Source: an uncultured virus (IMG/VR IMGVR_UViG_3300014043_000005)
Taxonomy: Duplodnaviria > Heunggongvirae > Uroviricota > Caudoviricetes
DNA: 64,000 nt
Direction: 5' to 3' (one strand)
IMG/VR virus record: IMGVR_UViG_3300014043_000005
Part shown: positions 6,499 through 63,211 of the stretch, piece after piece
Numbering within the stretch: the first letter of the stretch is position 1
Layout: each line of letters opens with the position of its first letter
Notes under the pieces: generated by a model
Told to the model about the DNA's origin: nothing
The model's input: the letters and a program-made list of their open reading frames with translations, nothing else
The model's database searches: none
Translations under genes and position numbers: made by a program

Positions 6499-7656
6499 TT
6501 ATTTGCCATCGTTCACATTCGCTGTTTTCAATTGCATCCATCTGTAAGCATCCAAACCAGCTTTCAAACGCGCTGGATATGATTCCACTGGATTCGCCGG
6601 GCGCACGAAACCGGCAAGGAAATGCCATGATGCCATGCGCACATCCCTGTCGGCATTGAATGCATCCAAACCCGCTTGCCCGTTCGCGCCGACATTACCA
6701 GTGAAATCCAATGGTTCACGCCATGAGTTCACATCATCAATTTCCAGCATCAGATACTCGACTTGCGTGTTTAAATCATCCCATTTCTCCTGTTTGCCAT
6801 CCGCGTAATCCAGATAAGCGATTGCTCGTGAACCAGTCCATTGCAACAGTCCGATTCCATGCGCACCGGTCTGAACCCATGCGCGCACTGCATCATTCGG
6901 ACAATTCTCACTCTCTCCATGCTCATAGACCTTACAGCCATCAGGATTAGTTCCATCAGTGCGTTCCAACGCAGTCGGATTCCCCTTGCTTTCACCATAC
7001 ACGACACCGATGATGGCGGCGGCATGAGTCGCATCCAAACCATGCAGGTTCATCATTATGCTGGCAAATGCCTGCATGTGCTCATCATCCATTGCCGTCG
7101 GTTTCACTATCGTTTTCGTTATGGTTTTCACAATCGGATTCGCATCCCTGTACAAGCCCTCACGGAACCTCCCGATTTTATAGGAAGCGTAACAACCGGC
7201 GATGATGAACACTATTATCATAATGTTGGCAATCACCCGGCGCATTATCCATCCGCATCCATGCTGTTTCCCTGCGTCCAATGATTCCATGTCAGCATAA
7301 TCCGTAAATGCGCTCACGCCGGATGATGAATTATCATTCGGCTGAACATTCATACTATGATGATTGTTCACATTGGAATCAATCACATTCATCTCATCAT
7401 GGACTTGATTATGCTTATTGGAACCGGTATGATTCAGATTCATGCGTGCATTGACTGCATCATGCTTATCATTAACCGGTTTGGCGGTATTATCCTGCAT
7501 TCCAGTATTATCATGCTCATTGGATGCATTGTCATGTTGTTCATTGGATGCATTGCGCGTCTTTAAAACCGGTATGACTGGAATGGCGGCATTATGTGAT
7601 TGCGATACCTGATTATCATCTACATCAATAAGGAACGGGTTATCATCAATTCTCAT
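6499..7656 (-). CDS. Membrane-anchored phage-tail-lysozyme-like (Phage_lysozyme2) peptidoglycan hydrolase
   Basis: Asn-rich N-terminus, one TM helix, then AAAIIG..ES.GNP, GIGLLQWTGSR, QVEYL and F.RPA motifs. Confidence 0.75.
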   Translation of the reverse strand: MRIDDNPFLIDVDDNQVSQSHNAAIPVIPVLKTRNASNEQHDNASNEHDNTGMQDNTAKPVNDKHDAVNARMNLNHTGSNKHNQVHDEMNVIDSNVNNHHSMNVQPNDNSSSGVSAFTDYADMESLDAGKQHGCGWIMRRVIANIMIIVFIIAGCYASYKIGRFREGLYRDANPIVKTITKTIVKPTAMDDEHMQAFASIMMNLHGLDATHAAAIIGVVYGESKGNPTALERTDGTNPDGCKVYEHGESENCPNDAVRAWVQTGAHGIGLLQWTGSRAIAYLDYADGKQEKWDDLNTQVEYLMLEIDDVNSWREPLDFTGNVGANGQAGLDAFNADRDVRMASWHFLAGFVRPANPVESYPARLKAGLDAYRWMQLKTANVNDGK

Positions 7657-20823: not shown

Positions 20824-21747
20824 TTAGAAGGAAAAGCACGGCACAACGCCATTAAGATCGTCGGCAAGAAAGTTACCAGAGGGATCGCCGGAATCGTAGA
20901 TAAAGAGGAAAGAGCCGCTGCCGGGGGAAGACGAACGCTCCCACCGCCAACTATAAGATGCTTTAATATGAGAACTATTTAATACCGTATTTGGTGAATA
21001 ATTCCGTGTAACCTTATTTTTAAAGAAATAATATTGAGAACCCTCATATTCTATTGCATTATGCCACCAATATGAAGTTTCAACCAGTTCATTATAACTT
21101 ATAAGCCATAGCTTATCAACAGTTGATGAAACATTAGCTTTTTTATAATAAGAACCTGTTGCAGGACCATTATCTGTTATCTTTATAACAGGTGAAATAT
21201 TTGATTGAAACTCTTGTGGCATCAATGTCCATATATCGCCACTATTCATTTGCTTGCGCAAGTCAGTATCACGCCATCCGCCATTTACATAAGTATGGTT
21301 TGATGAAGTAAACATTGCATGAGCTGGAATCTTACTTGCATCTGTTGCCATAAAAGTCAAACCTGCTTTACCTGTTCCATCTGCTTTATCATCATGGTTC
21401 ATTCCAATAAGACGGAACTCCATAGTCGAGCCATTTGTCATTTTCACGTTTCCGCGTTTATCACCATCACCGTATGAATCAGCTAAATCCATATATCTCT
21501 TGAATTGCGCATAATATTTACTATTTTCACCGTTTGCGCTCATATCATTGGCAATTTGTTTCAACTGTGCAGCATTGTATCCATTGCCATCATTTGGATA
21601 ACATACTGATTCCTGTGAACAGTCATGAGCCTGTATTTCTTCCGCGTGTCCGACATGCATGGTTCCAGCTGCAATCATGCATATAGCCGCCGCTGACGCG
21701 GCTATTGACAGCACGCGATGTTTCCGTTGCGCTTTTGTTAAAATCAT
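20824..21747 (-). CDS. DGR target: secreted DUF6273/C-type-lectin-like protein
   Basis: Sec signal peptide (KAQRKHR-hydrophobic-GHA|EE). FRLIGMNHD, GGWRDTDLR, DKLWLISYNE and WWERS-like...GVVPCF motifs. VR at the C-terminus. Confidence 0.88.
   Translation of the reverse strand: MILTKAQRKHRVLSIAASAAAICMIAAGTMHVGHAEEIQAHDCSQESVCYPNDGNGYNAAQLKQIANDMSANGENSKYYAQFKRYMDLADSYGDGDKRGNVKMTNGSTMEFRLIGMNHDDKADGTGKAGLTFMATDASKIPAHAMFTSSNHTYVNGGWRDTDLRKQMNSGDIWTLMPQEFQSNISPVIKITDNGPATGSYYKKANVSSTVDKLWLISYNELVETSYWWHNAIEYEGSQYYFFKNKVTRNYSPNTVLNSSHIKASYSWRWERSSSPGSGSFLFIYDSGDPSGNFLADDLNGVVPCFSF
20830..20950 (-). repeat. DGR variable repeat (VR)
   Basis: Encodes WRWERSSSPGSGSFLFIYDSGDPSGNFLADDLNGVVPCFS. My manual alignment gives 25 substitutions at TR A positions and 1 C>T near the 3' end. 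Confidence 0.95.
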
Positions 21748-21901: not shown

Positions 21902-24900
21902 TCAATCTTGTTCCTTGTCAATCATTCGGATTCGCCAGATAGTGATTCCAGTGATGACAATGAGTGCAATCAACAGCAGGATGAGTCTGGAGCCAGTCAA
22001 TGGGAAATCAGAAGACCATACTTTATCCAGCACATAACCAGCATCAATATTCGGATGTGATTGATCGGTTTTCACATTCATCCATTGAACCTCAACTGTT
22101 GACTGTGCATAAGTGGACTCATCCTTCTTATCCGTGTGAACATCAGAATCATCCGTTGCATCATGATAAGCATTAGTGTTAGATGAAGCCACGTCGGATT
22201 CAGTGAATGAATAGGATGGAATCTCACTGAACATCACACGATACTTCAATGATGAACATGCATTCATGGTTCCATCCGAATCAATTTCGCCGCATTTCGC
22301 TGATGAACCATCCACATTCTGATCGATTGGCAAATCAGTGAACTCATAGGAACCATCAGCGTTTACTTTCTTCTCATCAATCTTATCCTTCAATGAACCA
22401 TCCGTACTCACTGTCCACAGTGAGACAGCTTTGCCGGCGACAACTTTCTGATTATCCGTGTTAGACAGCTCATCAGCCTGCTGGATACCATCCTTATTCG
22501 AGTCTATCCAATAACGACCGGAAATCGTTCCGAATATTGCGCCATGAGCCTGACCTGAGATGAACACGCCGACTTGATCGCATTGATCCTCATTGTGTGC
22601 AATCGTGGATACAGTGTCCGCAGCATCTTTCGCAGAATCCGTTGTCGCACGATACTGATTGAATGGTTTGCCATAAATGTGTTCATTCACTTCACCGAAC
22701 GCATAACCAGCGCGGCAAGTGTAAGTCGCATCATGAACATCCTGTGTTCCATTGCGTGCAATGCCATCAGTGGTTTCACCTTGCGATTTCAGTACGGAAC
22801 CGAATGATTCCGATTCTGCGTTCCAATCACCAGTCGGATGACCTGCGTTCGCAATGTTCCCAGTGTCCGCAGTGGCATCCCAGTCATTCACGGTTTCAGA
22901 AGGGGCAGCGGGTCCATTATTCACAATGTTTCCAGCATGAGTCCGCGCGTTCGGAGTCTTATCAAATGGAGTTTCCGTGCTCGTGAACCATGCCTGATTC
23001 ACGACATATTTAGCAGCGCCAGCCTGATAAGTCTTATCTGCTTTCATAATGGCGGCATTCTTGTTCACAGTGCCTTCAAACACGAACACAAGTTCATTGC
23101 CAGCCGGAATGTCATATGGAATGCTGTATTCACGTTTAGTCAATGCCGTGCCAGCATCTGTTCCTTCCGGTGTGTCAATTGTGATCATGTTAGAAGTGTC
23201 AACATAATCAGAACCATAGATTTTCGCTTTGCCAATGGATTCCGGTGTAAGATTACCAATCTTATATACATTCCATGAGCCATCATCAGCATCAGCCCTA
23301 TGATTCTTATTGATGTTCGCTCCATCCGAGTAAGCGTCATAACCTGCAACCATGACTTCACCTGAATTCATCGAATACAAGGAATGATTGAAACCGAGAG
23401 CAATCAGGTTCGCGTTCTTCGTTATATTGGAACCATCCACAGTCATGGACACAGATGATCGCGGAGATGGTTTTTCATTCTTACCTACATACACCGGATT
23501 ACCATCTGCGTCTTTAACGGTATCTCCATTCTTATCAACCTCATACTGATTACCGTTCTTATATGCTATTCCGATTTTATCAGAATCAGTTCCAGTCGCC
23601 AGATTACCATACAAATCCAATCCCCATGTCCACACGGCTCCATCTGATTTCACAGCGGCTGAGCTCATGTATCCAGCGGACACGGAAACAAAACCGGTGT
23701 TATCTGATGGTTTAGCAGTCTGACCGAAATTAGAATCACCAGCAGTGATAATGCTTCCAGTTGATGTCAATGCAACCACATGATTGAAACCCGCCGCGAC
23801 CTGCGTGAAACCTGAACCGTACACTGATGATAATGATGGCGCGGATGTAGTAGTCGCGCTTGTCGTGTATTTCGCATTACCATCGGAATCAATGGCCGCA
23901 ATGGTTCCACTGAATGCAGACAAGGAACCAGCATAAGTCTTATATTTAGTGCCGGTATCCACTTGTGTCCATGAACCATTTGATTGCGTGATGAACATGT
24001 TTCCATTACTATCAATGATAACAGTGTAATCAGCGCCAGCCGCGACCAGAACAGGTGTTCCAGCACCAGTAACCGTAACCGGTGTCGGAGTCGCATGTGC
24101 AGCCGGAGTCGAATCATGTGAACCATTGCCGAGCTGACCGGAATCATTCAAACCCCATGTATACAACTTATCACCGCAAATAGCCGCTGAATGCATGCTG
24201 CCGGTGTCCGCAGAAGTGCATTTGCCTTCAATGCTGGTTAAAGCATTCGTGGATGGTTTCACAGAGTCGCCATTATCAGATGCTTTACCGACCTGACCAT
24301 ACTTATTGTATCCCCATGAATACAATTTGTCATTCGCAAGGACAAGAGAATGATCGCCATCCGTGAACACTTGCGCGGTGCTTTTCTTCAATGCGCTCAA
24401 ATAGGATTTCACATCCTTAACCTCATTGCTCATCGTATCAACAAGTTTAGTGTTTCCATTATTCGCATGAATGACAGTGTTGCCATTATTCTTCACTGAA
24501 ATCGCATACTGGATTGTACATTTGCTTCCAATGCATGCAGTGTTAGTCACTTGTTTGTTCACGGCGGCGAGCGGATGCGGCGCGTAATAACCATAATCCA
24601 CATTCGGACGGTCGCCTCCAGCGGGAACATTAGCATCAGTTGACCAATCATGCGCCGCCCGCTCGCATTCATCGCCATCAGACGGCTGCTTACCGTTCGT
24701 GCAACCGGAAATGCTGTCATATGAATAAGTGTTCGCAACCTGCCGTTCCGTATTATAATAATCCTGTGATTTATCAATACGAGTCGGAATTGCATGGTTA
24801 ATGATGGAGCCATCTTTACCATCGGTTTTGCCAGCATTGTCCGCACGGGACACAATGGTTACATAATCACCGGAATGAAGTTCAATGAACTTATAACCAC

Positions 24901-27900
24901 CCTTCCATGCTTTCTTAACAATGGAATCAGCGTCAGTTGTATTCATGTAATCATTTTTCCATCCGGTTGAATCATTCTCAACATCATCAGCAGTCCATGT
25001 ATGCATTGTGCGCAATGCTTTAGAATTATGATTATCACCGCAGAATTTATGAGTCATCGTTGATTGCTTGCCGCCAACTGTGATGTCAATGGTTCCATCG
25101 ATAATATCGGACTTATTGCAGAGAACCACTTTCACGTCCGGTATTCTCTGTTCATTGTCATCCATGTATGCATCGTTGGAATCATCCCACCAGAGAGTGC
25201 CGGAGAGAGTGCCTGCGACAACCTTGTTTACATCAGCCCAGGGTTGAGTGTTCTCATAGGTGCCTTTCTTACCATCGGTGCCAGCATTGCAATCAGCGGT
25301 TCCATTGGATTCAAGACAGTTCCGCCCAATCCATGCGACATACTGTTCACCGGAATGATTAGCGTTCTTATACGCTTTCGGGCTGGAATCAGTATCCACA
25401 GGTGTAATGGTTATCGTTCCATTAGCGGCTGCGACAGGCAGTGTTTCCGAACCATCCTTAATCTTATCAAAATGTGATTTAATGAGAATCGCGTTAATGT
25501 TCTTCTTATCATTATCCGATAGAGCATTCCATGATTTCCATGTGTAATCAGCAGGATTATCCGAGTTCTTATTCTCATTACCAACAGCATACATGAATTC
25601 AACATCAGTGCTGTTATTAGTTTTTACTTCCGGTTCAGCTGTCAGTTCCCAGCCGCCAGTGTAATCACTGGAACCCCGATCATACTCATGCCATGAGCAG
25701 TCAATACCAGGCATGTTGTTCTTGTTATCACCGATTCCTTCCGTGTTCACTTCTGTCTTACCATTGGATTCATAAATGCATGTGTTCTTACCGATGTTAG
25801 CGGAACCACCCATGATTTCATCATTCAATGCTGGCATGCGGACAACTGTCTGCACATAATCATTACCAGCATAAGCGGAACCACGAGTGAACACATTGAA
25901 ATTCCAATTCATGGAATCATTCACTTCCACGGTGTTCCCAGCTGTGATCTGACCGCCGCTGTTCTTCTCATCACTGATTGTCATCACATTGCTTTCATTA
26001 GCCGGACCCACATTATTATGGTTGTAAACCGGTTCCGCATTCGCTTTGTTGATGTCATAAGTCAGTTCAGAGGTTGTCGTAATGGAACCAATTGCACGAT
26101 TGGATATATCCGCAGTCCATTTGATTTCAGGGAAATGACCATTACCATCAGCATCCAATGCCGGGACATAACCATCATCCGGAATGTTCAATGTGAATGT
26201 GATACCTTGAACATTTCCTTTATTATCGGTTTTAATGTCCGCAGTCCATTCCTTGGATGCACTGGATGCGTTAATGAGTCCAGTTGACGGGTCAACTTTC
26301 ACTGTGACTGTCGCACGGGTGATTGTCGCGTTTGAATACGCGATGTTCTCATAATACGGTTGAATCGTGTAAGTCGCTTTATCACCGGGTAGTGTAATGC
26401 ATGCATTGGATTCAGCGTTCCCATGAACAGCATCGCAATTATTAATGACTTTATTGCCGAATGATGGACGAGTAGCAGTTAGTTTATTCGTGATTGATGC
26501 TTTCGGATCACCGACTTTATCAACATTATAGCAAACCGATGAACGACCAGACGCACCACTGTTCACGGAACCATCAACAACATCACAGACATTATTCAAT
26601 GAACCATTCGCAGTGCTTGCTATTTCCTTCAAATCAAACTGGAGATAATAATTATCACCAGCCTGATAATCCAAACCATCATGCAATACCACGCGGACAG
26701 CTGTGATTTTATCCCATTCTGATTCAGCAGGAATACCAGTATTCCATTCAGCGGTTTTATCACTGGAGCTGGATACATTAGTGTCGCCAATGCTTCCATT
26801 GCCATCAATGCTTTCATCCTTATTTTCGCCGCCGGTCCAGTTCAAATGGCTTGCCGTCCATTGGAAAGTGTAATCAGATGTGTTCAGTTCGCCATCACCG
26901 TAATCATCCGTATTATCATTGTTTCCGGTGAATGAATACACGCCATTGCGCTTCATGAATACATGGACATTACCACGGAACACCTGTTTTGCATTATCCC
27001 ATGAATCGGACACCGTGAATAATTTCGGAGCTGGATTCTTAGCACTGTTTTGAATACCAGCGCTGACAGTTGCACGAATCATCGTTCCCTGTGAAACATG
27101 ACCGCGATCGGATGAAACAATATTCTTACCTGATAGGAATGTTTTGTGTCCATTTGAACCATTTTCATCGAATGATTTGCTTTCATCATCGAAAATGGTT
27201 TTACCATTCGCATATGGTTGTTCAAGTTTCTTATTGAATACATAGCAATCCGTTGTGTCGCTATTGCACGGTGGAACATAAGTGTGAACCGTATCCGAGC
27301 GGCGGATTATACCACGGGACCAGTCATTGTTCGCATATGGATAACCGCGCATACTTCCAGTGTTCTCACTTTTAGTGCTTGTATCCCTATCAGTGTCCCA
27401 ACCGGGTTCACCGCCATGGCCCTGATTCATCATGACTTTCTCATCGGTTCCAGCAGCGAACACATATTTATCCGGTATGATGCGAATTGGAAGATAAGCA
27501 TTGGAACCATTTGATTTCAATGCAGATAGTTTGGAATCAATGTTTTCATTAACAGAGCATTCTTCCGTATAGGATTCGTCATCCTTTACACCATCCGGTT
27601 TCTTGCATGTGTAACCGATTTCAGATGCTGGAATGCTCCATGTTAATTTCGCTTCACCTGTCATAACATCAGTCGGCGTGTAAGTCAGTATTTTACCGCC
27701 ATTGCCGATTTTAGTGTTTCCAATAGTGAATACAGTGCTTGCAGGCCATGCGGTCGCATCAATTTTAATCGGACGATCCGGCGAAGCCCATGCGCCGGAT
27801 GCGGTTGTTCCCAGTGATGACCATCCTTTGTAAGCAAGTTCATTATCACGCTTAATGTAAAATGAACCAGTATAATCACCATCTGAATATGCATCATCCT

Positions 27901-28708
27901 TAGTATTGCCGTCGCTTAATTCATCATATCTTTCCGAACCATAACGATTATGCGGATCAGCGCCATTATCAAGATATAAATCACTATTCGGAGCTGACAC
28001 AACGGTTATCGGATCGGATGTTGATGTGTATGATGAGCCACCTTTCCTGGAAACCGTCATTTTCACAGAATTATTCGTTTTCACGGTTCCATTTGTATCC
28101 AATGCGGACAGGAACACCTTTTGTTCCACGCTGGTTGATACGCCAGCAGGAACGGAATAGGTGCAGCCGAGTTCAGGTTTGGACTCATCAACCCATTTAG
28201 CGCTCACCATGTTATTTGATGAGCAGAATGAACCACCGCTGATGAGTTTCAAATATTTTACATCATCCTTGGAATCATTCCATAATGAATCGAATTTAAC
28301 AGTGATTTCACGCTGTTTAGCAGCAGTGAAAGTCAGTTTAACATTATATCGGACTGTATCGCCTGATGCTACAACATTGTCATCAGGCGCGTTATCACCG
28401 GGAGTGAAACCATTCTCCTTCGTTATGAAAGTATGAGAACCCTTCTTAGGAGTCCATTTCTCATCATCATTCTGAATGCCATCATTATTCTTATCACCAT
28501 CCCAGCCTGTGCCATCCATGATTTTGACTATACTGGCATTAGTGTAAGGATTCGGTCTCTCAGTCGCTTCAGCGGAGTGCCCCCCGTCGTGTGTCATCAT
28601 GAATCCAGTGAAACCAGCCGCGCCGATAGTCGCCACAAGCAGACTGATTCCAATGGTTTTTAACCATTTATTATGTGTTTTCATTTGTAATCCAATCCCA
28701 TCAAACAT
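21902..28708 (-). CDS. Giant sortase-anchored surface adhesin (RCC1/BLIP-II-like repeats, SdrD-B/Cna-B-like domains)
   Basis: Signal peptide; WG.N..GQ.G repeats; two SG..W.DSN.D domains; C-terminal FPLTG followed by a TM helix and charged tail. Confidence 0.85.
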   Translation of the reverse strand: MFDGIGLQMKTHNKWLKTIGISLLVATIGAAGFTGFMMTHDGGHSAEATERPNPYTNASIVKIMDGTGWDGDKNNDGIQNDDEKWTPKKGSHTFITKENGFTPGDNAPDDNVVASGDTVRYNVKLTFTAAKQREITVKFDSLWNDSKDDVKYLKLISGGSFCSSNNMVSAKWVDESKPELGCTYSVPAGVSTSVEQKVFLSALDTNGTVKTNNSVKMTVSRKGGSSYTSTSDPITVVSAPNSDLYLDNGADPHNRYGSERYDELSDGNTKDDAYSDGDYTGSFYIKRDNELAYKGWSSLGTTASGAWASPDRPIKIDATAWPASTVFTIGNTKIGNGGKILTYTPTDVMTGEAKLTWSIPASEIGYTCKKPDGVKDDESYTEECSVNENIDSKLSALKSNGSNAYLPIRIIPDKYVFAAGTDEKVMMNQGHGGEPGWDTDRDTSTKSENTGSMRGYPYANNDWSRGIIRRSDTVHTYVPPCNSDTTDCYVFNKKLEQPYANGKTIFDDESKSFDENGSNGHKTFLSGKNIVSSDRGHVSQGTMIRATVSAGIQNSAKNPAPKLFTVSDSWDNAKQVFRGNVHVFMKRNGVYSFTGNNDNTDDYGDGELNTSDYTFQWTASHLNWTGGENKDESIDGNGSIGDTNVSSSSDKTAEWNTGIPAESEWDKITAVRVVLHDGLDYQAGDNYYLQFDLKEIASTANGSLNNVCDVVDGSVNSGASGRSSVCYNVDKVGDPKASITNKLTATRPSFGNKVINNCDAVHGNAESNACITLPGDKATYTIQPYYENIAYSNATITRATVTVKVDPSTGLINASSASKEWTADIKTDNKGNVQGITFTLNIPDDGYVPALDADGNGHFPEIKWTADISNRAIGSITTTSELTYDINKANAEPVYNHNNVGPANESNVMTISDEKNSGGQITAGNTVEVNDSMNWNFNVFTRGSAYAGNDYVQTVVRMPALNDEIMGGSANIGKNTCIYESNGKTEVNTEGIGDNKNNMPGIDCSWHEYDRGSSDYTGGWELTAEPEVKTNNSTDVEFMYAVGNENKNSDNPADYTWKSWNALSDNDKKNINAILIKSHFDKIKDGSETLPVAAANGTITITPVDTDSSPKAYKNANHSGEQYVAWIGRNCLESNGTADCNAGTDGKKGTYENTQPWADVNKVVAGTLSGTLWWDDSNDAYMDDNEQRIPDVKVVLCNKSDIIDGTIDITVGGKQSTMTHKFCGDNHNSKALRTMHTWTADDVENDSTGWKNDYMNTTDADSIVKKAWKGGYKFIELHSGDYVTIVSRADNAGKTDGKDGSIINHAIPTRIDKSQDYYNTERQVANTYSYDSISGCTNGKQPSDGDECERAAHDWSTDANVPAGGDRPNVDYGYYAPHPLAAVNKQVTNTACIGSKCTIQYAISVKNNGNTVIHANNGNTKLVDTMSNEVKDVKSYLSALKKSTAQVFTDGDHSLVLANDKLYSWGYNKYGQVGKASDNGDSVKPSTNALTSIEGKCTSADTGSMHSAAICGDKLYTWGLNDSGQLGNGSHDSTPAAHATPTPVTVTGAGTPVLVAAGADYTVIIDSNGNMFITQSNGSWTQVDTGTKYKTYAGSLSAFSGTIAAIDSDGNAKYTTSATTTSAPSLSSVYGSGFTQVAAGFNHVVALTSTGSIITAGDSNFGQTAKPSDNTGFVSVSAGYMSSAAVKSDGAVWTWGLDLYGNLATGTDSDKIGIAYKNGNQYEVDKNGDTVKDADGNPVYVGKNEKPSPRSSVSMTVDGSNITKNANLIALGFNHSLYSMNSGEVMVAGYDAYSDGANINKNHRADADDGSWNVYKIGNLTPESIGKAKIYGSDYVDTSNMITIDTPEGTDAGTALTKREYSIPYDIPAGNELVFVFEGTVNKNAAIMKADKTYQAGAAKYVVNQAWFTSTETPFDKTPNARTHAGNIVNNGPAAPSETVNDWDATADTGNIANAGHPTGDWNAESESFGSVLKSQGETTDGIARNGTQDVHDATYTCRAGYAFGEVNEHIYGKPFNQYRATTDSAKDAADTVSTIAHNEDQCDQVGVFISGQAHGAIFGTISGRYWIDSNKDGIQQADELSNTDNQKVVAGKAVSLWTVSTDGSLKDKIDEKKVNADGSYEFTDLPIDQNVDGSSAKCGEIDSDGTMNACSSLKYRVMFSEIPSYSFTESDVASSNTNAYHDATDDSDVHTDKKDESTYAQSTVEVQWMNVKTDQSHPNIDAGYVLDKVWSSDFPLTGSRLILLLIALIVITGITIWRIRMIDKEQD

Positions 28709-37968: not shown

Positions 37969-39510
37969 ATGATAACATTGAACACAATCATCCAATGGTT
38001 CATGAAACCATTACGCCATGCATCATGGTTGAATCGATTCCGGGGACTCATTCTGATTGCATCCAGTGCAATCATGCTGGCATTCGCTTTAAGCACGCCA
38101 TATGATTACGCGGAGCATGATTCCTTTGCGGTGGATGATTATCGTGGTGGACACGCCGCGTACATATGGTGGATGAGTGATGACCATCTGTTTGAAATAC
38201 CATCATGGGACACACGGGTTGTCAAGGATGGCGTGTTCAATGCATCCAATGGCGGCATGTGGAGTTGGAATAATCCGCCATTATATTATTGGCTCATGGC
38301 TATACCCGTATGGTTCGCAAGACTGCTCACGAACATGTTCAATCTGGGTTGGACCGTTAACGGGATAATGCTCGTTCCGCAAGTGTTCGGCGTGATAATC
38401 ATGATTGCGTTCATGCTATTATCAATTGAAACCATGCATGCATTGGAATTAGATGACAGGATGCTGAACATTGGAACATTATTATTATGTTCCGCGCCAA
38501 CACTAATGTATGAGTCACGTTCAATCGGAAATGATGTCCTGCTTGCATTATTGTTTCTGCTTGGATTACGATTCCTGATGACATGGTGGCATGAACCATC
38601 ATTGAAAAACAGCGCGATAATCGCTTTAATCACAGGATTGGCTTGTATGACGAAAGTGAATGGTTTCATTCTCATGCTCATTGCATTCATTGTGTTCATC
38701 ATCCGCGTCATCGCATGGTTCCATGAGAACAGGAAAACCGGTGAGAATAAGACAACCGGCGATGATGGCATTATGATGACATGGTTTGATTGGTTGAAGG
38801 ATGCTGGCATGTTCACTTTGATTGCATTGCCATTATCATTCTGGTATCAATTATATGAGTATGTTGAATTCCATGTTCCATTGTTTTTCGTTCAGCGTCC
38901 ATTCTATGCCGGTGAGGTGAAAGGTTATGATAACCCTGAACCGGCGATAGGATTCAATGGCGGTGTGAGCAGATGGTTCCATGCTGTCATCAATCAGCCT
39001 ACGATTTCACCGGATGATGATTCGAACATTCCAGTGAATGCAGTGAAATCATATGTGAACAGCCTGTTCATGCCCCGTGAACCATTCCTGGGATTATTGC
39101 ACTGGATTGGATTCGGACTGGGACTAATAATGCTTATCATCATGTTCATTTTCATGATGACAGGTTTAACCGGCATTATGAAACGCGGATTCCATGGCTT
39201 ATCACCGGAATGGATTATAAGCGGTGTCAGCATTATGATAATGGGTTTATTCTATGTGTATTGTTGTTATCGTGAACCGGTCACGTCAACGCCGAATGTC
39301 CGTTACATCATAATGTTGTTCCCGTTCATCATATCCATTATCATGCATGCAATGCAATCATTGCTGGAATCAAATAACATCATCATGAGAAGAATCGGCA
39401 TTGTAATCATGATTATCAGCATATTATTCGCCATGACATGTTTCATGATAAATGGAACGCTGACAATTGATTGCATGACTGGCATTGCGTTTAAGCCAAT
39501 CATGAAATGA
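37969..39510 (+). CDS. GT-C membrane glycosyltransferase (ArnT/PMT, GT39-like)
   Basis: Many TM helices; DD..GHAAY, NPPLYY, SIGNDVL and GLACMTK motifs; C-terminal RY. Confidence 0.8.
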   Translation: MITLNTIIQWFMKPLRHASWLNRFRGLILIASSAIMLAFALSTPYDYAEHDSFAVDDYRGGHAAYIWWMSDDHLFEIPSWDTRVVKDGVFNASNGGMWSWNNPPLYYWLMAIPVWFARLLTNMFNLGWTVNGIMLVPQVFGVIIMIAFMLLSIETMHALELDDRMLNIGTLLLCSAPTLMYESRSIGNDVLLALLFLLGLRFLMTWWHEPSLKNSAIIALITGLACMTKVNGFILMLIAFIVFIIRVIAWFHENRKTGENKTTGDDGIMMTWFDWLKDAGMFTLIALPLSFWYQLYEYVEFHVPLFFVQRPFYAGEVKGYDNPEPAIGFNGGVSRWFHAVINQPTISPDDDSNIPVNAVKSYVNSLFMPREPFLGLLHWIGFGLGLIMLIIMFIFMMTGLTGIMKRGFHGLSPEWIISGVSIMIMGLFYVYCCYREPVTSTPNVRYIIMLFPFIISIIMHAMQSLLESNNIIMRRIGIVIMIISILFAMTCFMINGTLTIDCMTGIAFKPIMK

Positions 39511-46074: not shown

Positions 46075-46796
46075 ACCGCAATTATATCATATATAATCAT
46101 TAAACCGGAAACAATGAATCGCGCCGTATTCATCCGTATGCATTAGAATATATAATAAGAAGTGAACGAGAATAGCGTGTTATTCCGGTTCGCTCCCATT
46201 GAAGATAATGAATATGTTTTGTAATCATTATCATCAATCAGCGGATTGGCTGAACACGATAATAAGATTCATCATCACTGATAACACAGGCATGTGCTTT
46301 CATAAGTTCAAACATATACTCATCCAGTATGTTATGCATGCTATCCGTATTCAATTGTTTAATGCCAATCAGGATTGAAATCAGCCTCCGCCAAATGATG
46401 CCTTACGATAGTCTGAAATGGCATGATAATGGTTTCAATGAGCGCATTGCATTCATCCTCATGCACTGGACTAATCGTGCGGATAACATTGAACTCATTG
46501 CTGGTATTCTGGCGTGCAAACCAATTACTGCTTGCCAGCGTCAGTTTACGAATGTTGGATTCCCGGTGGGTTCCCGGATTATGATAACGCTGTTCTCATT
46601 GAGGATGGAATCCCATTGCTTATCATTCCGTATGAAACGTTCAAGTTTAACGAGAACGGCGTTGATTTTCATGAGGCCCTCACTAATGTTCATGACATGA
46701 TAACATCTCAGATTGCCGACATTAATTAAAATATAATGAACGCAATGAGAACAATGAATCATCATGCTCTCATTGCGTTCATTATATATTCATTTA

Positions 46797-47024
46797 TTAT
46801 TTAATGAGTGTTTTAATCCTATCCGGTTGATAACCACTCCATGACTCACCATCCGCTTTCACGACAGGCATTTGTTTGAAACCTTCATTAATGGGCTGTT
46901 CACAAATGCTCTCATTATCATCAATGTTAACATCAGTATACACAATGCCGAGCTTATCCATGAGTCGCATGGTCATCCGGCATTGCTGGCAACCATTCTT
47001 ATGATACACGATAACATTATCCAT
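46797..47024 (-). CDS. nrdH: Glutaredoxin-like protein NrdH
   Basis: VY.K.GCQQC, GFKQMPVV and WSGYQPDRIK. Confidence 0.88.
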   Translation of the reverse strand: MDNVIVYHKNGCQQCRMTMRLMDKLGIVYTDVNIDDNESICEQPINEGFKQMPVVKADGESWSGYQPDRIKTLIK

Positions 47025-47192
47025 TATTATTCCTCCTTTAATGCGTTAACATGAAAACATGCGTTAACAATGATATCAATGGATAATGGAAAGGGACGCG
47101 CCGGATAATCAAATGTTGACAATCATATGGTATCATTATATCATATGAGCATAATCAAACACGATTATTGTTTTGAAAGGAAACTTGTTAAA

Positions 47193-47384
47193 ATGGATAC
47201 ACGCAAAATGTATGATGAAATCGTTGATTATTTCATGGCTTGCGGGCAGGATAGCGGTGATTGGAATATTGATGGACTCATTGATGACATTGACAACAAG
47301 TATCCTGATATCAACAGTATTGATGATATTCCGGAGGATGAATTCACCGGCATGCTCATTAAACATGACACAACCGTTGAATAA
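47193..47384 (+). CDS. Small acidic hypothetical protein
   Basis: RBS GAAAGGA with TTGACA promoter upstream. Very Asp-rich. Confidence 0.65.
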   Translation: MDTRKMYDEIVDYFMACGQDSGDWNIDGLIDDIDNKYPDINSIDDIPEDEFTGMLIKHDTTVE

Positions 47385-47655
47385 CCAGTTCAATGAATGC
47401 ATGTGAACAAAAATATAAGGGAACGCGAACAAAATAGCCATTGATGCTTGCGTTCCCTGTTTTATTATTGTTTATAATGTTATCTTATCAATTCATGCCA
47501 ATCGCTTTCACCGATGTCATCATTAACGGTCATGAGTTTCCTATGAAAGAACGCTGAGGGAAAACCGGCGCACTTATCTGATGGCAATAATACATCCAAT
47601 GTATTATCATTCAGTTCAGTTCTGTTTTCAAATCAATCTCAAATCAACCATATTT

Positions 47656-48078
47656 TCACCAGTTCATTCCACCGTCATCTGCATTCATCGCCATCATGCT
47701 GTCAGCATCCATGTATTCACGTGGACGCACACCAGCACCGCTTCTTGCTCCTGAAACCGCTCTCATGAGCAGCCTGCGAACATTCATGCCATCAATCACA
47801 TTCACTAATCGTGCAACACCGCCAGTTGAAACATCATAAGCGTTCACAACAACAGTTGACAGTCCGAACATACGCTGCAATAATGTGCGTTCCACGGTAA
47901 CATCCATAATGCGATACAATGGAATGCTATCTATTTTCTGACGGATGATCCCCTGTTCAATGATCAATTCACTATCTGTGAGAGTGTACACGGTGAATGA
48001 AAATTTCGTCCGGCACCAGTTCCGTTTACGTTGCTTCCAGATTATCTCACCATCAGAATAATCCCTTGTCCCGGCCAT
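47656..48078 (-). CDS. Bacterial PH-domain (bPH_2) protein
   Basis: YTLTD.ELII.QG....D.IPLYRI.DV...RTLLQRMFGL pattern. Confidence 0.8.
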   Translation of the reverse strand: MAGTRDYSDGEIIWKQRKRNWCRTKFSFTVYTLTDSELIIEQGIIRQKIDSIPLYRIMDVTVERTLLQRMFGLSTVVVNAYDVSTGGVARLVNVIDGMNVRRLLMRAVSGARSGAGVRPREYMDADSMMAMNADDGGMNW

Positions 48079-48135
48079 GCTGTTAAACCTTTCATATTAA
48101 TAATCATAATCATAATATCCATATTAATGCCGGTA

Positions 48136-50667
48136 TTATGCGTTCATGCTCTCATTGAATACACGTTTCACGACATCATGCTGGATTCTTGTTTTCATAT
48201 TATTGAATGAACGATAACCATCATTCTGATATTCCACGACAGGTTCACGTTGAGCATAACCACGCAAACCGACGCTGATTTTCAAATAATCCATTTCATA
48301 CAAATGTTCACGCCATTTCCCATCAACCGCTTCCATGAACGCTGAACGCATCATACTATCAAACCTGTCATCGCCTGTTTTCTCATGATATGATTCCAAT
48401 GCGTCCAATGCGCGCGATGTAATGCAATCAGTCATCATGTTCACGGCATTACGAGGTTTAACATCATGAATCATCGCTTTCAATGAATCCACAGTGAGTT
48501 TCACATCGGGAATCATATCAATCACATCATGGATGATTCCAATGTAATCCCATGCATCCAATGGTTTCAATTTGCCTTGTTTCATGCTGTCAGCGGATTG
48601 TTCATGAGCATGATTCATGATAATCCGATGAATGACATCATGAACGCAATCATTGAAATCAGCGTTCACATCAGCACCATGCAATATGAGATTACGTTCC
48701 GCATACACTATCCTTCGTTGCTTATTCAACACATCATCATATTTCAACGTGTCCTTACGCTGCTCATAATTCATGTTCTCACGGTTCTTCTGCGCTGTCC
48801 GCACGCCTTTCGTGATGCGTTTTGACGTGAGCGCATCACCTGTTGGAATCATTGTGTTCATGACAGCCGCCACGGTTCGAGTATTGAACAATCTCATGAG
48901 ATCATCCTCCAATGACACGTAGAAACGGCTTTCACCCGGATCTCCCTGCCGTCCCGCACGCCCACGCAACTGATTATCAATACGGCGAGCCTCATGGCGT
49001 TCAGAACCAATCACATACAATCCACCAAGTTCAATGATTTCATCATGCGCCGCCTTCACTTTTGCCTTCATTGTTTTCAATGCATCCGGGAACGCCGCAT
49101 CATACGCAGCCGGTGTCCCGGATGGTGTCAAACCCTGTTCACGCAGGGTTTCATCAGTCATGTATTCAACATTCCCACCGAGCATGATGTCAGTTCCGCG
49201 TCCAGCCATGTTCGTCGCGACTGTCACCGCTCCCTTGCAACCGGCCATTGCGACAATGCCAGCTTCCTGTTTATTGTTCTTGGCATTGAGTACAGTGTGT
49301 TCAATGCCTGCGACATCCAACAACGCACTGATTTCCTCGCTTGATTCCACGCTTGCGGTTCCAATTAGAACGGGTTGACCGGTTTTATGATGTTCAGCGA
49401 CATCCTCGATTATCGCTTTCAGCTTATCATTCTTATGCAGGTAAATCATGTCATCATGATCCACACGGACACATGGTTTATTCGATGGAATCGGAATCAC
49501 CGGCAGTTTATAAGTGTTCATGAATTCCGCCGCTTCCGTTTCCGCCGTGCCGGTCATGCCAGCGAGTTTATCATACAAACGGAAATAATTCTGCAAGGTT
49601 ACCGTCGCGTAAGTCTGATTTTCAGGTTGGATTTCCACTTTTTCTTTAGCTTCAATCGCCTGATGCAAACCATCATTATACCGGCGACCCGGCAGAATGC
49701 GTCCAGTGTGTTCATCCACTATCAGAACCTCGCCTTTTTTAACCACATAATCCCTGTCCCGTTGGAATAATTCCTTCGCTTTCAATGCATTCATCATGCA
49801 TCCGATGAGTTCAGCGTTCCCGTTCTCATAAGCATTATCCACTCCGATATACTCATTAAGTTTCCGGACACCGGAATCCAGCATGCACACGGTTTTCTTC
49901 TTCTCATCAACAGTGTAATCATCATCACGTTTCAATGTTCGCACGAACGCAGCCATTGGTTTGAACCATTTGCTGTCATCATTCTCAGCCGGGCCGGAAA
50001 TAATCAATGGTGTGCGAGCCTCATCAATGAGAATGGAATCAACCTCATCCACTATCGCGTAATTATGCCCGCGTTGGACAATGCCGTCAATGCTTTCAGT
50101 CATGTTATCACGCAGATAATCAAAACCAAATTCATTATTCGTGCCATAAGTGATATCACAATCATACTGGCGTTTACGTTCCGCAGGGGATTGTTCAGTG
50201 AGAATACAACCAGTTGACAATCCCATGAACCGAAATACGCGCCCCATTTGATCCGCCGCGTATTTCGCAAGATAATCATTCACTGTGATGACATGGACGC
50301 CTTTGCCGGTGAGAGCGTTCAAATAAGCTGGCATGATGGTAACAAGCGTTTTACCTTCCCCTGTTGCCATTTCTGAAATGCAACCCTGATGCAAGGCGAT
50401 TCCACCCATTATCTGAACCGGGAATGGTTTCATGTTCAATATGCGCCATGCCGCTTCCCTGATGGCGGCGAACGCCGGAATCAGAATGGAATCAATGCTG
50501 TCGCCTGCATCCAGTTGGCGTTTGAACATTTCCGTTTTCTCTTTCAGTTCAGCGTCAGTAAGCGCAGTGTAATCGGCATCCAATGCAATAACTTGATTCG
50601 CTTTCGCCTGCAAATCACGTAACCGTTTGCCTTCACCGATTCGCAATGCCTTGTCCATTAAATCCAT
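48136..50667 (-). CDS. secA: Preprotein translocase ATPase SecA (lacks C-terminal tail)
   Basis: EMATGEGKT, DEVDSILIDEARTPLIISG, TNMAGRGTDI and RRIDNQLRGRAGRQGDPG. RBS GAAAGGA before ATG 50667. Confidence 0.97.
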   Translation of the reverse strand: MDLMDKALRIGEGKRLRDLQAKANQVIALDADYTALTDAELKEKTEMFKRQLDAGDSIDSILIPAFAAIREAAWRILNMKPFPVQIMGGIALHQGCISEMATGEGKTLVTIMPAYLNALTGKGVHVITVNDYLAKYAADQMGRVFRFMGLSTGCILTEQSPAERKRQYDCDITYGTNNEFGFDYLRDNMTESIDGIVQRGHNYAIVDEVDSILIDEARTPLIISGPAENDDSKWFKPMAAFVRTLKRDDDYTVDEKKKTVCMLDSGVRKLNEYIGVDNAYENGNAELIGCMMNALKAKELFQRDRDYVVKKGEVLIVDEHTGRILPGRRYNDGLHQAIEAKEKVEIQPENQTYATVTLQNYFRLYDKLAGMTGTAETEAAEFMNTYKLPVIPIPSNKPCVRVDHDDMIYLHKNDKLKAIIEDVAEHHKTGQPVLIGTASVESSEEISALLDVAGIEHTVLNAKNNKQEAGIVAMAGCKGAVTVATNMAGRGTDIMLGGNVEYMTDETLREQGLTPSGTPAAYDAAFPDALKTMKAKVKAAHDEIIELGGLYVIGSERHEARRIDNQLRGRAGRQGDPGESRFYVSLEDDLMRLFNTRTVAAVMNTMIPTGDALTSKRITKGVRTAQKNRENMNYEQRKDTLKYDDVLNKQRRIVYAERNLILHGADVNADFNDCVHDVIHRIIMNHAHEQSADSMKQGKLKPLDAWDYIGIIHDVIDMIPDVKLTVDSLKAMIHDVKPRNAVNMMTDCITSRALDALESYHEKTGDDRFDSMMRSAFMEAVDGKWREHLYEMDYLKISVGLRGYAQREPVVEYQNDGYRSFNNMKTRIQHDVVKRVFNESMNA

Positions 50668-50746
50668 TATCCATAATCCTTTCAAACTTTCATCATGCAT
50701 ATGTTTTCATGCGTTCAATTCCGCTATCAATGATAGCATTGAGCCG

Positions 50747-52117
50747 TCATGCCGCATGCTTCCTGTCCGCTTCCAGCATTGCAGTGAAATCAACATGATT
50801 CGCTTTCTCCGCATGAGGCAGGAAACCTGTATAATGCCATTGTGCGGTGTTCGCTTTAACCTGACGTAAAGTATCCAGACCGACACCGGCGATAATAAGG
50901 ATGGTGGTTCCGCCGAATGGCAGTCGTTCGTTCAATTGCAATGTCATGATGAGAACAGTTGGAATCAACGCGACTGCAAGCAGGTAAACGCTGCCGACCG
51001 TATTCAGTTTATTCATGACATAACCGAGATACGCCGCTGTCTTATGACCGGCTGGCACACCCGGAATGAACGCACTGGATTCATTCAATTGCTCAGCTGT
51101 TTCATGCGTATCCAACGCGATTGACGAATAGAAGAACGTGAACCCGATAATCATGAACGAATACAATGCGATATACCAGATGGAAGTGCTGTTCGACAGG
51201 TTCGATTGAATCCATTGCGCCCAATTGGAATCAGGACTGATGAAAACCAGCATGGATGGAATAGCGAGAATGCTCATTGCGAAAATCGGCGGCATGACAC
51301 TGCTCATGTTGATTTTCAATGGAATGTAACTCATGCTTTCACGGGGCGCACTGTCATCCAGAATGCGTTTCGTGTATTGGATTGGAATGCGACGCTGGCA
51401 AAGCTCCACGAAAACAATGAACATGAGAACGATAATGAGGACGCTGATGACAATGCCGAATTTCAACCAGTCGCCATCCGAACCATTCGAACCATAACCG
51501 ATGTCCCAGAGTCGCGGCAGGAAACCGGAGCAGATGCTCATGAAAATGAGAATGCTCATTCCCTGACCGATTCCCTTATCCGTGATGAGTTCCGCCATCC
51601 ACATGATGAAACCACTGCCTCCAATGAGAACAAGCGTCATTATAATAAGATTGAACACGCTGCCATCCGGTATGACCTGACCGCATTTTCCGGCGAACAA
51701 TGAACCACTGCGTGCAGTGAGGACAATGCCAGCTGATTGAATGACGGCGAGTCCAATCGCAAGATAACGAGTGTACTGGTTCAGTTTGGTTTCACCGGGT
51801 TGTCCTTCCCTGTGGAGTTCCTCAAAATGCGGAATGAGAATTTTCAACAATTGGACGATGATGCTGGCGTTAATATAAGGCATGACACCGAGAGCGAACA
51901 CTGACAGTTGCAGCATCGCGCCACCTGAGAACAGGTTAACGAGCCCGATGAAATCCTCGGAACCGCTGATTTTCGTCATGCATTCATTGATTACACTGTA
52001 ATCAACACCGGGTGCCGGAATGAATGAACCGATACGGTAAATGAGAATGAGTCCAATTGTGAACAGTATCCGGTTCCGTATGTCCGGTGTCCTGAATGCG
52101 TTCATTATCGTTCGCAT
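50747..52117 (-). CDS. secY: Preprotein translocase SecY
   Basis: YRIGSFIP.PG, SVFALGVMPYINASIIVQLL, KGIGQGMS and FGGTTILI. Confidence 0.97.
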   Translation of the reverse strand: MRTIMNAFRTPDIRNRILFTIGLILIYRIGSFIPAPGVDYSVINECMTKISGSEDFIGLVNLFSGGAMLQLSVFALGVMPYINASIIVQLLKILIPHFEELHREGQPGETKLNQYTRYLAIGLAVIQSAGIVLTARSGSLFAGKCGQVIPDGSVFNLIIMTLVLIGGSGFIMWMAELITDKGIGQGMSILIFMSICSGFLPRLWDIGYGSNGSDGDWLKFGIVISVLIIVLMFIVFVELCQRRIPIQYTKRILDDSAPRESMSYIPLKINMSSVMPPIFAMSILAIPSMLVFISPDSNWAQWIQSNLSNSTSIWYIALYSFMIIGFTFFYSSIALDTHETAEQLNESSAFIPGVPAGHKTAAYLGYVMNKLNTVGSVYLLAVALIPTVLIMTLQLNERLPFGGTTILIIAGVGLDTLRQVKANTAQWHYTGFLPHAEKANHVDFTAMLEADRKHAA

Positions 52118-52151
52118 GTTATTAAATTCCTTTCTGCTTAATGCAATGCTG

Positions 52152-52385
52152 TCATTGCATGAGTCCGACCGTGATAATGAGCACGAACCAGATTATCGCT
52201 ATTATCACAGTCCATCGGTTCAGGTTCTTTTCCGCGACGCCGCTTGTTCCGGCGTTCCGCATGAGTCCACCGCCGAACATGTCGGACAGCCCCCCGCCCT
52301 TGCCTTTATGCAACAGGATGAGCAGAGTCAGGAACAGGCTTAGAATTCCAATTATGATTTTCATTATGATGAGCAATGTATTCAT
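52152..52385 (-). CDS. secG: Preprotein translocase SecG
   Basis: ILLHKGKGGGLSDMFGGG...AEKNLNRWT (actinobacterial SecG). Confidence 0.95.
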   Translation of the reverse strand: MNTLLIIMKIIIGILSLFLTLLILLHKGKGGGLSDMFGGGLMRNAGTSGVAEKNLNRWTVIIAIIWFVLIITVGLMQ

Positions 52386-52426
52386 GAGGATTATCCTTTA
52401 TAATATTATGCTGGTTTCCAATAAGT

Positions 52427-52615
52427 TCAGTTTCCGAATATTCTTAAAGTGAGTTCACCGAGCACTCCATCCAAACCGGTCATGGCAAGCATGAGACACA
52501 GGACGAACACAAGAACGGCAATACTCCAACCCAGCCATTCTTTAACGGTTGGTGTGACTGTTTTCCTGAGTTCGGTTATAATACCGGCGATGAACCCGCC
52601 TATTCTTGTAAGCAT
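52427..52615 (-). CDS. secE: Preprotein translocase SecE
   Basis: ELRKTVTPT.KE followed by a single TM helix and D..LG. Confidence 0.9.
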   Translation of the reverse strand: MLTRIGGFIAGIITELRKTVTPTVKEWLGWSIAVLVFVLCLMLAMTGLDGVLGELTLRIFGN

Positions 52616-53398
52616 GATGCCAGTTCCCTTTCATCCCATGTTGACTATTATTGTTTCTTTAATCAATGATATCACCGGGTTGAAACCTGATGGAAAAGGA
52701 CTATTCATACATTGATTATGATGCTGACGGATTTGACACCGGTTCCGCTTAACACGGTTGCATCAATTATCAGTATTCATTCGTTCATTGCATTCATGCG
52801 AACAAAACATAATGGGGATTCAACCAGTATGCTGCGTTCCCGTCAGTGTGATATTATTGACTGGGACGCCTGCGCAGGTTCTTTCCTTTCTCACTGCGCA
52901 GGCGTCACTTCCTCCCTTCCCTTTTAATGACTATTTTCACTTTAAACAACCTCTCTTTAATGAACACATTGTATTCACGTTGAATCATAACATCGGCTTA
53001 TATCCAAATGCCGGACAATAGGATACAGTATGATTAACGGTATTTGAATGTGAACATTGAATACAACATGAATCAGCATCATGCTCTGGAACACGTTTAA
53101 ACGACATTCTAACGCGCTATCATGATAAATATGAACTGAGACTCACAACCATTATGAAAACGCCGCCAGAAAGTCAAATTCGCATTATCATGAAATTGAA
53201 CAACGCAGACGTTGCTGACATGTGTATTTCAAAAATATAATCGCCGCTGTCCGCCACCGGACATAACCATTACCCCTGCCAATCGTTCTCTGCATGAGCA
53301 CACTGCGGGCAAGCATGAGTCTCGGTTCGCTTGGGCAGCGCGTAGTCACGTCAGGGCGGAAAGCAGGGGACGGTAAGGCGGCAGGCGTGCTGGTTACT

Positions 53399-53475
53399 AA
53401 AACTCACACGGGTACTCCCTGCTTGCTTTCAGGTGAACCAGGTCAGAATGAGTTTTCAAACAGTATGATTATCGT
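53399..53475 (+). repeat. Solo copy of the long repeat
   Basis: AAACTCACACGGGTACTCCCTGCTTGCTTTCAGGTGAACCAGGTCAGAATGAGTT. Short core again at ~53606-53621. Confidence 0.9.
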
Positions 53476-63154: not shown

Positions 63155-63211
63155 TCAATGCATGTGATATTTCCACATTGCGTTCAATGAGAACAGGAAA
63201 GCAGGTGGATT

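Follow-up and report, generated by a model that had tools for sequence, protein, structure and literature searches.

A complete secE-secG-secY-secA operon with an altered SecY and a tail-less SecA on a putative giant element from the cattle gut

The SecYEG channel and its SecA motor are usually seen as fixed chromosomal housekeeping genes. A full set of them is encoded in a 64-kilobase (kb) stretch of DNA (64,000 nucleotides, hereafter the window) taken from an uncultured virus record, IMG/VR IMGVR_UViG_3300014043_000005. A first-pass annotation of this DNA had described secE, secG, secY and secA followed by a bPH_2 gene, all in one orientation, and had proposed that host-derived genes were assembled into a dedicated export machine. 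The order and orientation are borne out by the open reading frame (ORF) listing, on the minus strand from 52615 to 47656:

52427..52615, minus strand: secE, first gene of the operon, 62 amino acids (aa); PF00584 (1.2e-09), TIGR00964
52152..52385, minus strand: secG, 77 aa; PF03840 (6.2e-17), TIGR00810
50747..52117, minus strand: secY, channel subunit with altered cytosolic docking loops, 456 aa; Pfam SecY (2e-93), TIGR00967
48136..50700, minus strand: secA, housekeeping-type motor ATPase without the C-terminal linker and zinc finger, 854 aa; NF009538
47656..48078, minus strand: gene for a bPH_2-domain protein, last of the operon, 140 aa; PF03703 (5.2e-15)

The genes are separated by 41, 34, 46 and 57 nucleotides (nt), in the order listed, and a purine-rich stretch lies upstream of most start codons. 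SecA matches SecA_DEAD (1.6e-121) and the P-loop, PPXD and wing/scaffold domains in Pfam. Each Sec protein scores above the curated cut-off of its housekeeping NCBIfam model: SecE 43.5 bits against 27.55 (TIGR00964), SecG 62.5 against 30.85 (TIGR00810), SecY 378.2 against 253.6 (TIGR00967), and SecA 1084.7 against 814 (NF009538) and 1021.6 against 800 (TIGR00963). The canonical set of SecY, SecE, SecG and SecA is thus complete. All models of accessory SecA2 remain under cut-off (TIGR03714, 756.5 of 930; TIGR04397, 832.7 of 1085; NF012136, 631.1 of 1100; TIGR04221, 594.3 of 725), as do those of SecY2 (NF009082, 159 of 353; TIGR02920, 141.2 of 249.6). The statement that chromosomal sec genes are unlinked holds in the one genome checked (G001), where secE lies at C5:94854, secY at C5:210019, secA at C6:236467 and secG at C8:136711.

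The reading that we favor, with a probability of roughly 0.58, is that these genes were captured by the element, kept, and co-adapted into an insulated Sec route for the element's own exported proteins. The earlier proposal of an export machine stands as far as host origin, a non-chromosomal setting, intact genes under purifying selection, pieces of the operon in RNA libraries, and candidate clients are concerned. That the machine is dedicated we infer from the lost docking residues of SecY, the missing tail of SecA, and the analogy with Hodor megaplasmids described at the end of this text.

The strongest departure from a canonical translocase is in SecY. Residues R255, R256 and R357 of Escherichia coli SecY are conserved sites that bind the ribosome, FtsY and SecA, and a charge-reversal triple mutant of the three does not bind ribosomes (PMC3575545, available portion). 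In an alignment to E. coli SecY (5abb_A, native numbering), the element SecY has D255/S256 at the positions of R255/R256 in the C4 loop, and P355 at the position of R357 in the C5 loop. It differs at 27 of the 148 positions that are invariant among 29 actinobacterial comparators; the radical changes are concentrated in C4 (G254D, R255D) and C5 (K345N, G348S, G349A, R355P) and are common to all four element copies. In a panel of 15 SecY proteins, all 15 have the basic C5 residue, including plasmid paralogues of Bifidobacterium longum, Pseudarthrobacter, Paenarthrobacter and Streptomyces, and all ten Actinomycetota have the C4 motif GR[RKQ]. Among the 120 best SecY database matches, the combination of VP and ILDDS occurs in the element's own cluster only; of the other 119, all have GR[KR] at C4 and 116 have [IV]R at C5, the remaining three being unmatched by the pattern. 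Judged by the conserved basic C4 and C5 residues, the element protein falls outside canonical SecY.

SecA has retained its motor and lost its tail, as the first-pass annotation had described. In an alignment of the window protein with seven Bifidobacteriaceae SecA and one Micrococcales SecA, the window protein ends directly after the scaffold/wing region, and all seven Bifidobacteriaceae proteins extend about 85-180 residues further through an acidic linker to the terminus CPCGSGRKYKMCH. Chromosomal SecA open frames are 929-1029 aa long (30 loci). The tail is typical, not universal; the zinc motif is likewise missing from the Micrococcales outgroup protein (L071). The motifs MATGEGKT, DEVD (at 218) and GRAGRQG (at 580) are intact, and we take them to be Walker A, Walker B and the arginine finger (GRxGRxG), respectively. 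The true start of SecA is likely a few codons downstream of the listed one, since the first ATG is missing in two of the other copies (L025 and L026). Of 360 comparator-invariant positions, 53 are altered in the window protein, at rates of 24.6% in the PPXD and 23.6% in the scaffold/wing versus 8-13% in the nucleotide-binding domains. The PPXD (preprotein-binding) and scaffold/wing regions of SecA contact the preprotein and the channel. SecB and ribosomes bind to the tail of SecA, which also modulates activity, and SecY defects in C5 and C6 can be rescued by suppressor mutations in secA. With both partners having shed ribosome-facing features and the motor kept, the two may be a co-adapted, post-translational pair that is partly insulated from the host.

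The altered loops and the missing tail bear on an alternative in which a huge phage or megaplasmid carries the Sec genes as a general capacity booster or back-up for host secretion and membrane insertion during its burdening or takeover of the cell, with no private route or special clients. The housekeeping type of the proteins (by hidden Markov model, not SecA2/SecY2), the intact SecA ATPase motifs, and another host-machinery gene, for a protein like release factor 2 (RF2), 10 kb away are all compatible with such a role; large phages often carry translation genes. A back-up, however, would be expected to keep the residues for ribosome and FtsY docking that serve co-translational insertion, and these are replaced here; none of the 15 panel proteins and none of the 116 readable database matches has them replaced. 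The loss of the SecA tail and the concentration of changes in PPXD and scaffold/wing also speak against a plain back-up, which we consider unlikely, while granting it a real chance of being correct.

Relaxed selection had been raised in the first-pass annotation as a reason to doubt the proposal. It was not seen. Three contigs from other metagenomes (L025-L027) carry the same operon with 95.9-100% protein identity; at the DNA level they match the window with 95-98.6% identity and have TnpB copies at different places. Ratios of non-synonymous to synonymous substitution rates (dN/dS) were calculated by the Nei-Gojobori method against L025 and L026, L027 being identical to L026 in the sec region. 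The ratio is 0.05-0.07 for SecY (12-16 synonymous and 2-4 non-synonymous differences), 0.11-0.12 for SecA (14-31.5 and 6-13.5) and 0-0.08 for SecE (2-4 and 0-1, relative to L025-L027), and SecG has no non-synonymous difference to L025-L027; the sec genes thus range from 0 to 0.12. The bPH gene gave 0.15-0.58, and two neighbouring genes 0.27-0.31. From these comparisons the sec genes appear intact and under strong purifying selection.

The same data argue against a role in interference, in which a divergent SecY and SecA would poison or occupy the host translocon, excluding competitors or arresting the host, with no export at all. The replaced docking residues are compatible with this, and E. 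coli R357 mutations behave as export-defective alleles. All four subunits and the motor are retained, the ATPase motifs are undamaged and dN/dS is very low throughout, which exceeds what a blocker needs, and the Sec operon of Hodor elements is paired with giant secreted proteins (PMC12934698, available portion). We regard interference as very improbable.

Absence of expression had likewise been raised as a doubt. Sequencing runs listed as containing operon DNA number 20; they come from 12 studies and almost all carry the label bovine gut. Logan contigs of four RNA libraries (two studies) likewise contain near-identical pieces of secA, secY, secG with secE, and bPH. One of these contigs (52143-52625) spans secE and secG, another (50366-50800) crosses the secY-secA junction, and further contigs lie inside secA, secY and bPH. 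The pieces fit transcription of the operon; strand is not given and carry-over of DNA is possible. The operon is covered and the window is nearly bare at 44000-46334, a bare stretch that carries no evidential weight.

The sec genes derive from a host lineage, as had been proposed, and the trees place that lineage near the Bifidobacteriaceae. In the SecY tree the element clade joins the Bifidobacteriaceae to the exclusion of Micrococcales with 100/100 support; its possible position as sister to, rather than nested in, the sampled Bifidobacteriaceae has a Shimodaira-Hasegawa-like approximate likelihood ratio (SH-aLRT) support of 95 under LG+G4 and 66/83 under a mixture model. In the SecA tree the element clade and Bifidobacteriaceae are united with a support of 100, and the clade again stands beside the sampled Bifidobacteriaceae (support of 80) on a very long stem. 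SecY is 59-67% identical to Bifidobacteriaceae SecY. Its best database match is the element's own cluster (99%), and the next 119 listed are at 61-67% identity, the named entries among them being nearly all Bifidobacterium, with one Galliscardovia. SecA is 49-59% identical, near full length, to SecA in 41 of 41 Bifidobacteriaceae genomes, with one main locus in each. SecE is 54-60% identical to SecE of five Bifidobacteriaceae chromosomes and the B. longum megaplasmid, and SecG 62-71% identical to Bifidobacteriaceae SecG; relative to Pseudarthrobacter plasmid copies, SecE and SecG are 42% identical. Two proteins that looked like intermediate SecY relatives (P0002 and P0003) were ruled out as B. 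longum SecY with internal duplications (assembly artefacts), and another candidate relative (L034) was set aside as a frameshifted SecY on a contig of 58.8% GC.

The capture appears to be old. GC content at third codon positions is 0.47-0.67 in the four sec genes, 0.78-0.85 in chromosomal orthologues and on average 0.44 in 19 neighbouring ORFs; since the sec genes lie near the value of their neighbours, they have probably been largely ameliorated to the composition of the element. A DNA-similarity method that may miss spacer-sized matches was applied to window positions 44001-64000. Among the matches listed, which come from 236 of 236 Bifidobacteriaceae genomes, all fall in the cores of secA and secY, with 65-68% identity; 404 more matches fell outside the list.

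The setting is that of a mobile element, as the first-pass annotation had assumed. The window has about 42% GC and is rich in ORFans; only 17 of the 74 other ORFs have a Pfam match at the thresholds used, and TnpB insertions vary between copies. The families found include Mom, DUF3841, Phage_lysozyme2, two TnpB and one HTH fragment, a PD-(D/E)XK nuclease, a reverse transcriptase, DUF6273, RCC1 repeats, ResIII/Eco57I, glutaredoxin and the RF2-like protein, and a PHROGs search adds few annotations. No ribosomal-protein, nusG or adk gene was recognised by Pfam among the 74 other ORFs, in agreement with the earlier description. ARAGORN found no tRNA in the window, including at 2696-2758 (minus strand), where Rfam gives one borderline tRNA match (30.8 bits vs a gathering score of 29). 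Pfam scans of the 64 kb found no Rep_3/ParAB, type IV secretion system, sortase or trigger factor gene. Megablast of 24 kb of window DNA against phage and plasmid collections gave no match, and searches of IMG/VR with SecY and with an RF2 alignment found no relative.

Extension of the element beyond the window is suggested by two proteins. For the bPH protein there are 20 database relatives, with 39-98% identity in the aligned portion. At least two are carried by very large contigs: a 96%-identical cluster by one of 553,788 bp and a relative at 70% by one of 375,007 bp. The RF2-like protein (62012-63154, plus strand, a single ORF 10 kb from the operon; TIGR00020, 291 bits, under the cut-off of 370) is only 34-46% identical to named bacterial RF2; three unnamed proteins are closer to it, at 51-54%, and one of these (53%) is on the same 375,007-bp contig. 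Because the bPH cluster is on the 553,788-bp contig and relatives of both proteins share the 375,007-bp contig, the element is probably large; we think it likely to be giant and extrachromosomal.

A contig of 553,788 bp is also the size of a tiny genome, and the window could in principle be part of a cellular chromosome, that of an AT-rich, fast-evolving, small-genome relative of Bifidobacteriaceae for which these would be the only sec genes. The completeness of the Sec set and the position of the clade beside, not clearly inside, the sampled Bifidobacteriaceae are in line with this. Against it, apart from the sec genes just two recognisable cellular genes occur in 64 kb (those for the RF2-like protein and for a glutaredoxin), ribosomal, nusG and adk genes and ARAGORN tRNAs are absent apart from the one borderline Rfam match, the RF2 is distant from named bacterial RF2, TnpB insertions differ between copies, and a sole SecY without the conserved docking residues would be unexpected. 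We hold a chromosomal origin of the window to be extremely improbable. An alternative genetic code was also considered and rejected. Among 46 ORFs with 100 aa or more, 32 stop at TGA, 11 at TAA and 3 at TAG. Treating TAG as a sense codon makes almost no difference, and treating TGA as one brings no more than read-through of the most frequent stop would; code 11 fits and was kept.

Four ORFs of the window were selected as possible clients of the translocase by simple hydropathy and motif reading, without a trained predictor:

21902..28708, minus strand: 2268-aa surface protein with RCC1 repeats (Pfam), candidate client
20824..21747, minus strand: 307-aa DUF6273 protein (PF19789, 4.4e-10) with a signal peptide, candidate client
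6499..7656, minus strand: 385-aa protein with a hydrophobic segment at 133-151 and Phage_lysozyme2 (PF18013, 1.2e-22) at 194-374, candidate client
37969..39510, plus strand: 513-aa polytopic membrane protein with eight hydrophobic segments (TIGR03663, 2.5e-06, weak and under cut-off), possible client

The 2268-aa protein has a signal-like N-terminal segment and ends in FPLTG, a hydrophobic stretch and RIRMIDK, a sortase-type sorting signal that indicates a Gram-positive host. The 307-aa protein is encoded directly downstream of the 2268-aa gene and has the N-terminus MILTKAQRKHRVLSIAASAAAICMIAAG.

The role of the bPH_2 protein is less clear from its features. A hydropathy scan predicted no transmembrane segment. 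Its AlphaFold model (predicted local distance difference test score, pLDDT, 73) has a PH-like beta-sandwich with a helix, and a fold search of the model against the PDB returned generic PH domains only, none at E<=0.001. A complex prediction of SecA (residues 12-854) with the bPH protein scored 0.00, which is no answer and speaks neither for nor against binding. The family occurs in one of five Bifidobacteriaceae genomes, on a contig other than that of the genome's secA; for this reason bPH_2 was probably not acquired along with the sec genes.

Taken together, the evidence is consistent with the following course. A very large, AT-rich extrachromosomal replicon of cattle-gut Gram-positive bacteria, most likely relatives of Bifidobacteriaceae, would have captured secE, secG, secY and secA long ago from its host lineage and joined them with bPH_2 into one operon. 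In the host membrane the products would form an additional SecYEG channel, powered by a SecA of the element, and a SecY without the basic C4 and C5 residues and a SecA without its tail would be a co-adapted, largely insulated pair. Export would be post-translational and SecA-driven, to the presumed benefit of the element, for element-encoded proteins such as the 2268-aa sortase-anchored protein. A bolder version, that this is the first mobile element with a whole orthogonal Sec translocase, comprising a SecY unable to dock the ribosome, FtsY or SecA of the host, a co-evolved tail-less SecA, a ribosome-independent private lane and a conserved, soluble PH-domain protein as accessory factor, is tentative and probably claims too much.

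Several points weigh against an insulated, dedicated route. The basic C4 pair is missing in the panel's two Firmicutes SecY and hence is not universal, and with R357E alone ribosomes still gate SecYEG (PMC3689939); for these two reasons loss of ribosome docking is unproven. The dN/dS values come from small counts (for secY and secA, 2-13.5 non-synonymous differences), and two of the copies, L026 and L027, are not independent. RNA-library contigs lacking strand could derive from DNA. The DNA examined is the 64-kb window, and in these 64 kb no gene for a capsid, for replication or for conjugation was recognised, nor was a sortase or chaperone gene; the element may be a plasmid or a phage. The client proteins are candidates tied to the sec operon by inference only, and a separate chromosomal Sec system of the host is assumed.

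Further features of the window are the following:

8929-10191, minus strand, and 58130-59386, plus strand: two TnpB genes (Pfam)
146-218, 32574-32646, 56024-56096, 344-435, 1092-1183, 36407-36498, 59603-59694, 35412-35512, 53397-53497 and 57763-57863: copies of dispersed repeats
41323-46074, minus strand: protein of 1583 aa whose N-terminus holds a ResIII helicase domain, with a weak match to an Eco57I-type methylase (Pfam)
1269-2060, plus strand: Mom-like DNA-modification protein (PF25680, 4.4e-31; phrog_1384, 2e-48)
15748-17253, minus strand: 501-aa reverse transcriptase (phrog_1423, 1.4e-33; group II intron and Drt4 matches are weak)
55017-56057, plus strand: 346-aa protein without a family match, its N-terminal third very rich in Cys with many CxxC pairs

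Dispersed repeats belong to several families of 57-181 nt, and in two of them (D1 and D5) inverted stretches that can form hairpins suggest ends of IS200/605 type. In the stretch compared, RNA-library contig depth is highest (68.9, X17) at the repeat copy 56024-56096; a transcript resembling a TnpB guide RNA may account for this, or reads of other organisms. The 1583-aa protein has a dN/dS of 0.28 between copies, and its layout resembles that of large anti-restriction proteins in which phages and plasmids combine a helicase with a methylase. Asn (7.2%), Asp (7.1%), Met (4.5%) and His (3.4%) are unusually frequent in the predicted proteins of the window, most of which have no Pfam, PHROGs or NCBIfam match.

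The locus indicates that a giant mobile element can hold a full SecYEG and SecA set over the long term, and can reshape the channel surfaces that face cytosolic partners while under strong purifying selection. If the pair is insulated, it would be a natural orthogonal Sec system, useful for asking what R255, R256, R357 and the SecA tail do, and a possible part for engineered secretion in bifidobacteria.

The first-pass annotation implied that such an operon lacks precedent. This was overstated, as sets of SecY, SecE and SecG occur on megaplasmids of B. longum, of Micrococcaceae and of the Hodor group. Of 13 IMG/VR contigs with SecA, none showed a tblastn match (E<=1e-3) to SecY, SecE or SecG in the sequence fetched on either side, which was at most 8 kb. 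Plasmid records with SecY numbered 99 and with SecA 148, and the overlap of the best 30 of each consists of Mb-scale replicons or chromosome fragments. In a collection labelled 'phages', the listed rows among 14 SecY and 31 SecA records are 'UNVERIFIED_ORG' fragments or have secY between rplO and rpmJ, and we read these as host DNA. In the literature searched, no paper was found on a phage or plasmid with SecA and SecYEG; the accessible parts of 10.64898/2026.10.24.761521 and PMC8313286 do not mention SecY, SecE, SecG or translocase, and that of the former does not mention SecA.

The accessory Sec systems (SecA2/SecY2-Asp1-3 of streptococci and staphylococci; SecA2 only in mycobacteria, Listeria and Bacillus) resemble the operon in having a second SecA with or without a SecY, and in a narrow set of export clients, often large cell-wall-anchored adhesins. 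They differ in that the window proteins are of housekeeping type by their models, include SecE and SecG, and are borne on a mobile element; Pfam found no Asp1-3 or glycosyltransferase among the 74 other ORFs of the 64 kb.

A SecYEG set outside the spc and nusG contexts, in the same host family, is present on the B. longum megaplasmid NZ_CP143940.1 (183,781 bp, RepA; L075/L078). Its capture is recent, with the plasmid SecY 96.8% identical to the chromosomal one and 67% to that of the window, and unlike the window protein it keeps the docking residues (GRK, IR). The plasmid secY is about 31 kb from secE and secG, no SecA was found by PF07517, and the secY region has 57% GC. This second secY is neighboured by genes for WhiB and type I-E Cas proteins, and the cluster of secE, a hypothetical gene and secG by a gene for DivIVA. 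A secY 66-67% identical to the window's is also present in three more plasmid records of B. longum (193-198 kb). No paper discussing the plasmid-borne secY of B. longum was found in the literature searched. The Micrococcaceae megaplasmids pACHL01 (NC_011879.1, L074) and pYJN5-1 (NZ_CP053545.1, L111), of 427-440 kb, have adjacent secG and secY among hypothetical genes, and a syntenic block from a dihydrofolate reductase gene to secG-secY on both suggests a conserved plasmid Sec module. A distant secE, but no SecA, is also on pACHL01, where the region has 65% GC; SecY of these plasmids is about 40% identical to the window's and keeps the docking residues. A lone secY was seen on a Streptomyces linear plasmid.

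The closest likeness is to Hodor, conjugative megaplasmids of human-gut Bacillota with an average of about 357 kb and 44-47% GC, here compared by description, not by sequence relatedness, from the available portion of a preprint (PMC12934698, bioRxiv Feb 2026). SecY, SecE and SecG are in all 38 curated Hodor genomes, in an operon hyp-SecY-SecG-SecE with genes for a trigger factor, for sortases and for two giant secreted proteins close by. Hodor elements have giant surface proteins with signal peptides, for which sortase anchoring is expected, and the authors propose a Sec pore for the element's own giant proteins (PMC12934698). The window, too, has a SecY/SecG/SecE operon on a low-GC element that is probably giant and extrachromosomal, a giant surface protein that by motif reading has a signal peptide and sortase anchor, and the TnpB and Phage_lysozyme2 domains that are frequent in Hodor; such an element is easily taken for a virus. 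The sec donor is Bifidobacteriaceae (Actinomycetota) in contrast to Bacillota, and the habitat is the bovine rather than the human gut; sortase, trigger factor, Rep_3/Par and type IV secretion genes were not found in the 64 kb. The gene order is E-G-Y-A, with SecA and bPH_2 added, and the term 'SecA' occurs 0 times in the available part of the text and supplement of PMC12934698. The operon adds an actinobacterial lineage from the cattle gut to the giant elements with their own export channel and giant surface proteins, and what is new is the tail-less SecA in the operon, the bPH_2 partner gene, the lost docking residues of SecY, the actinobacterial lineage and the cattle-gut habitat.

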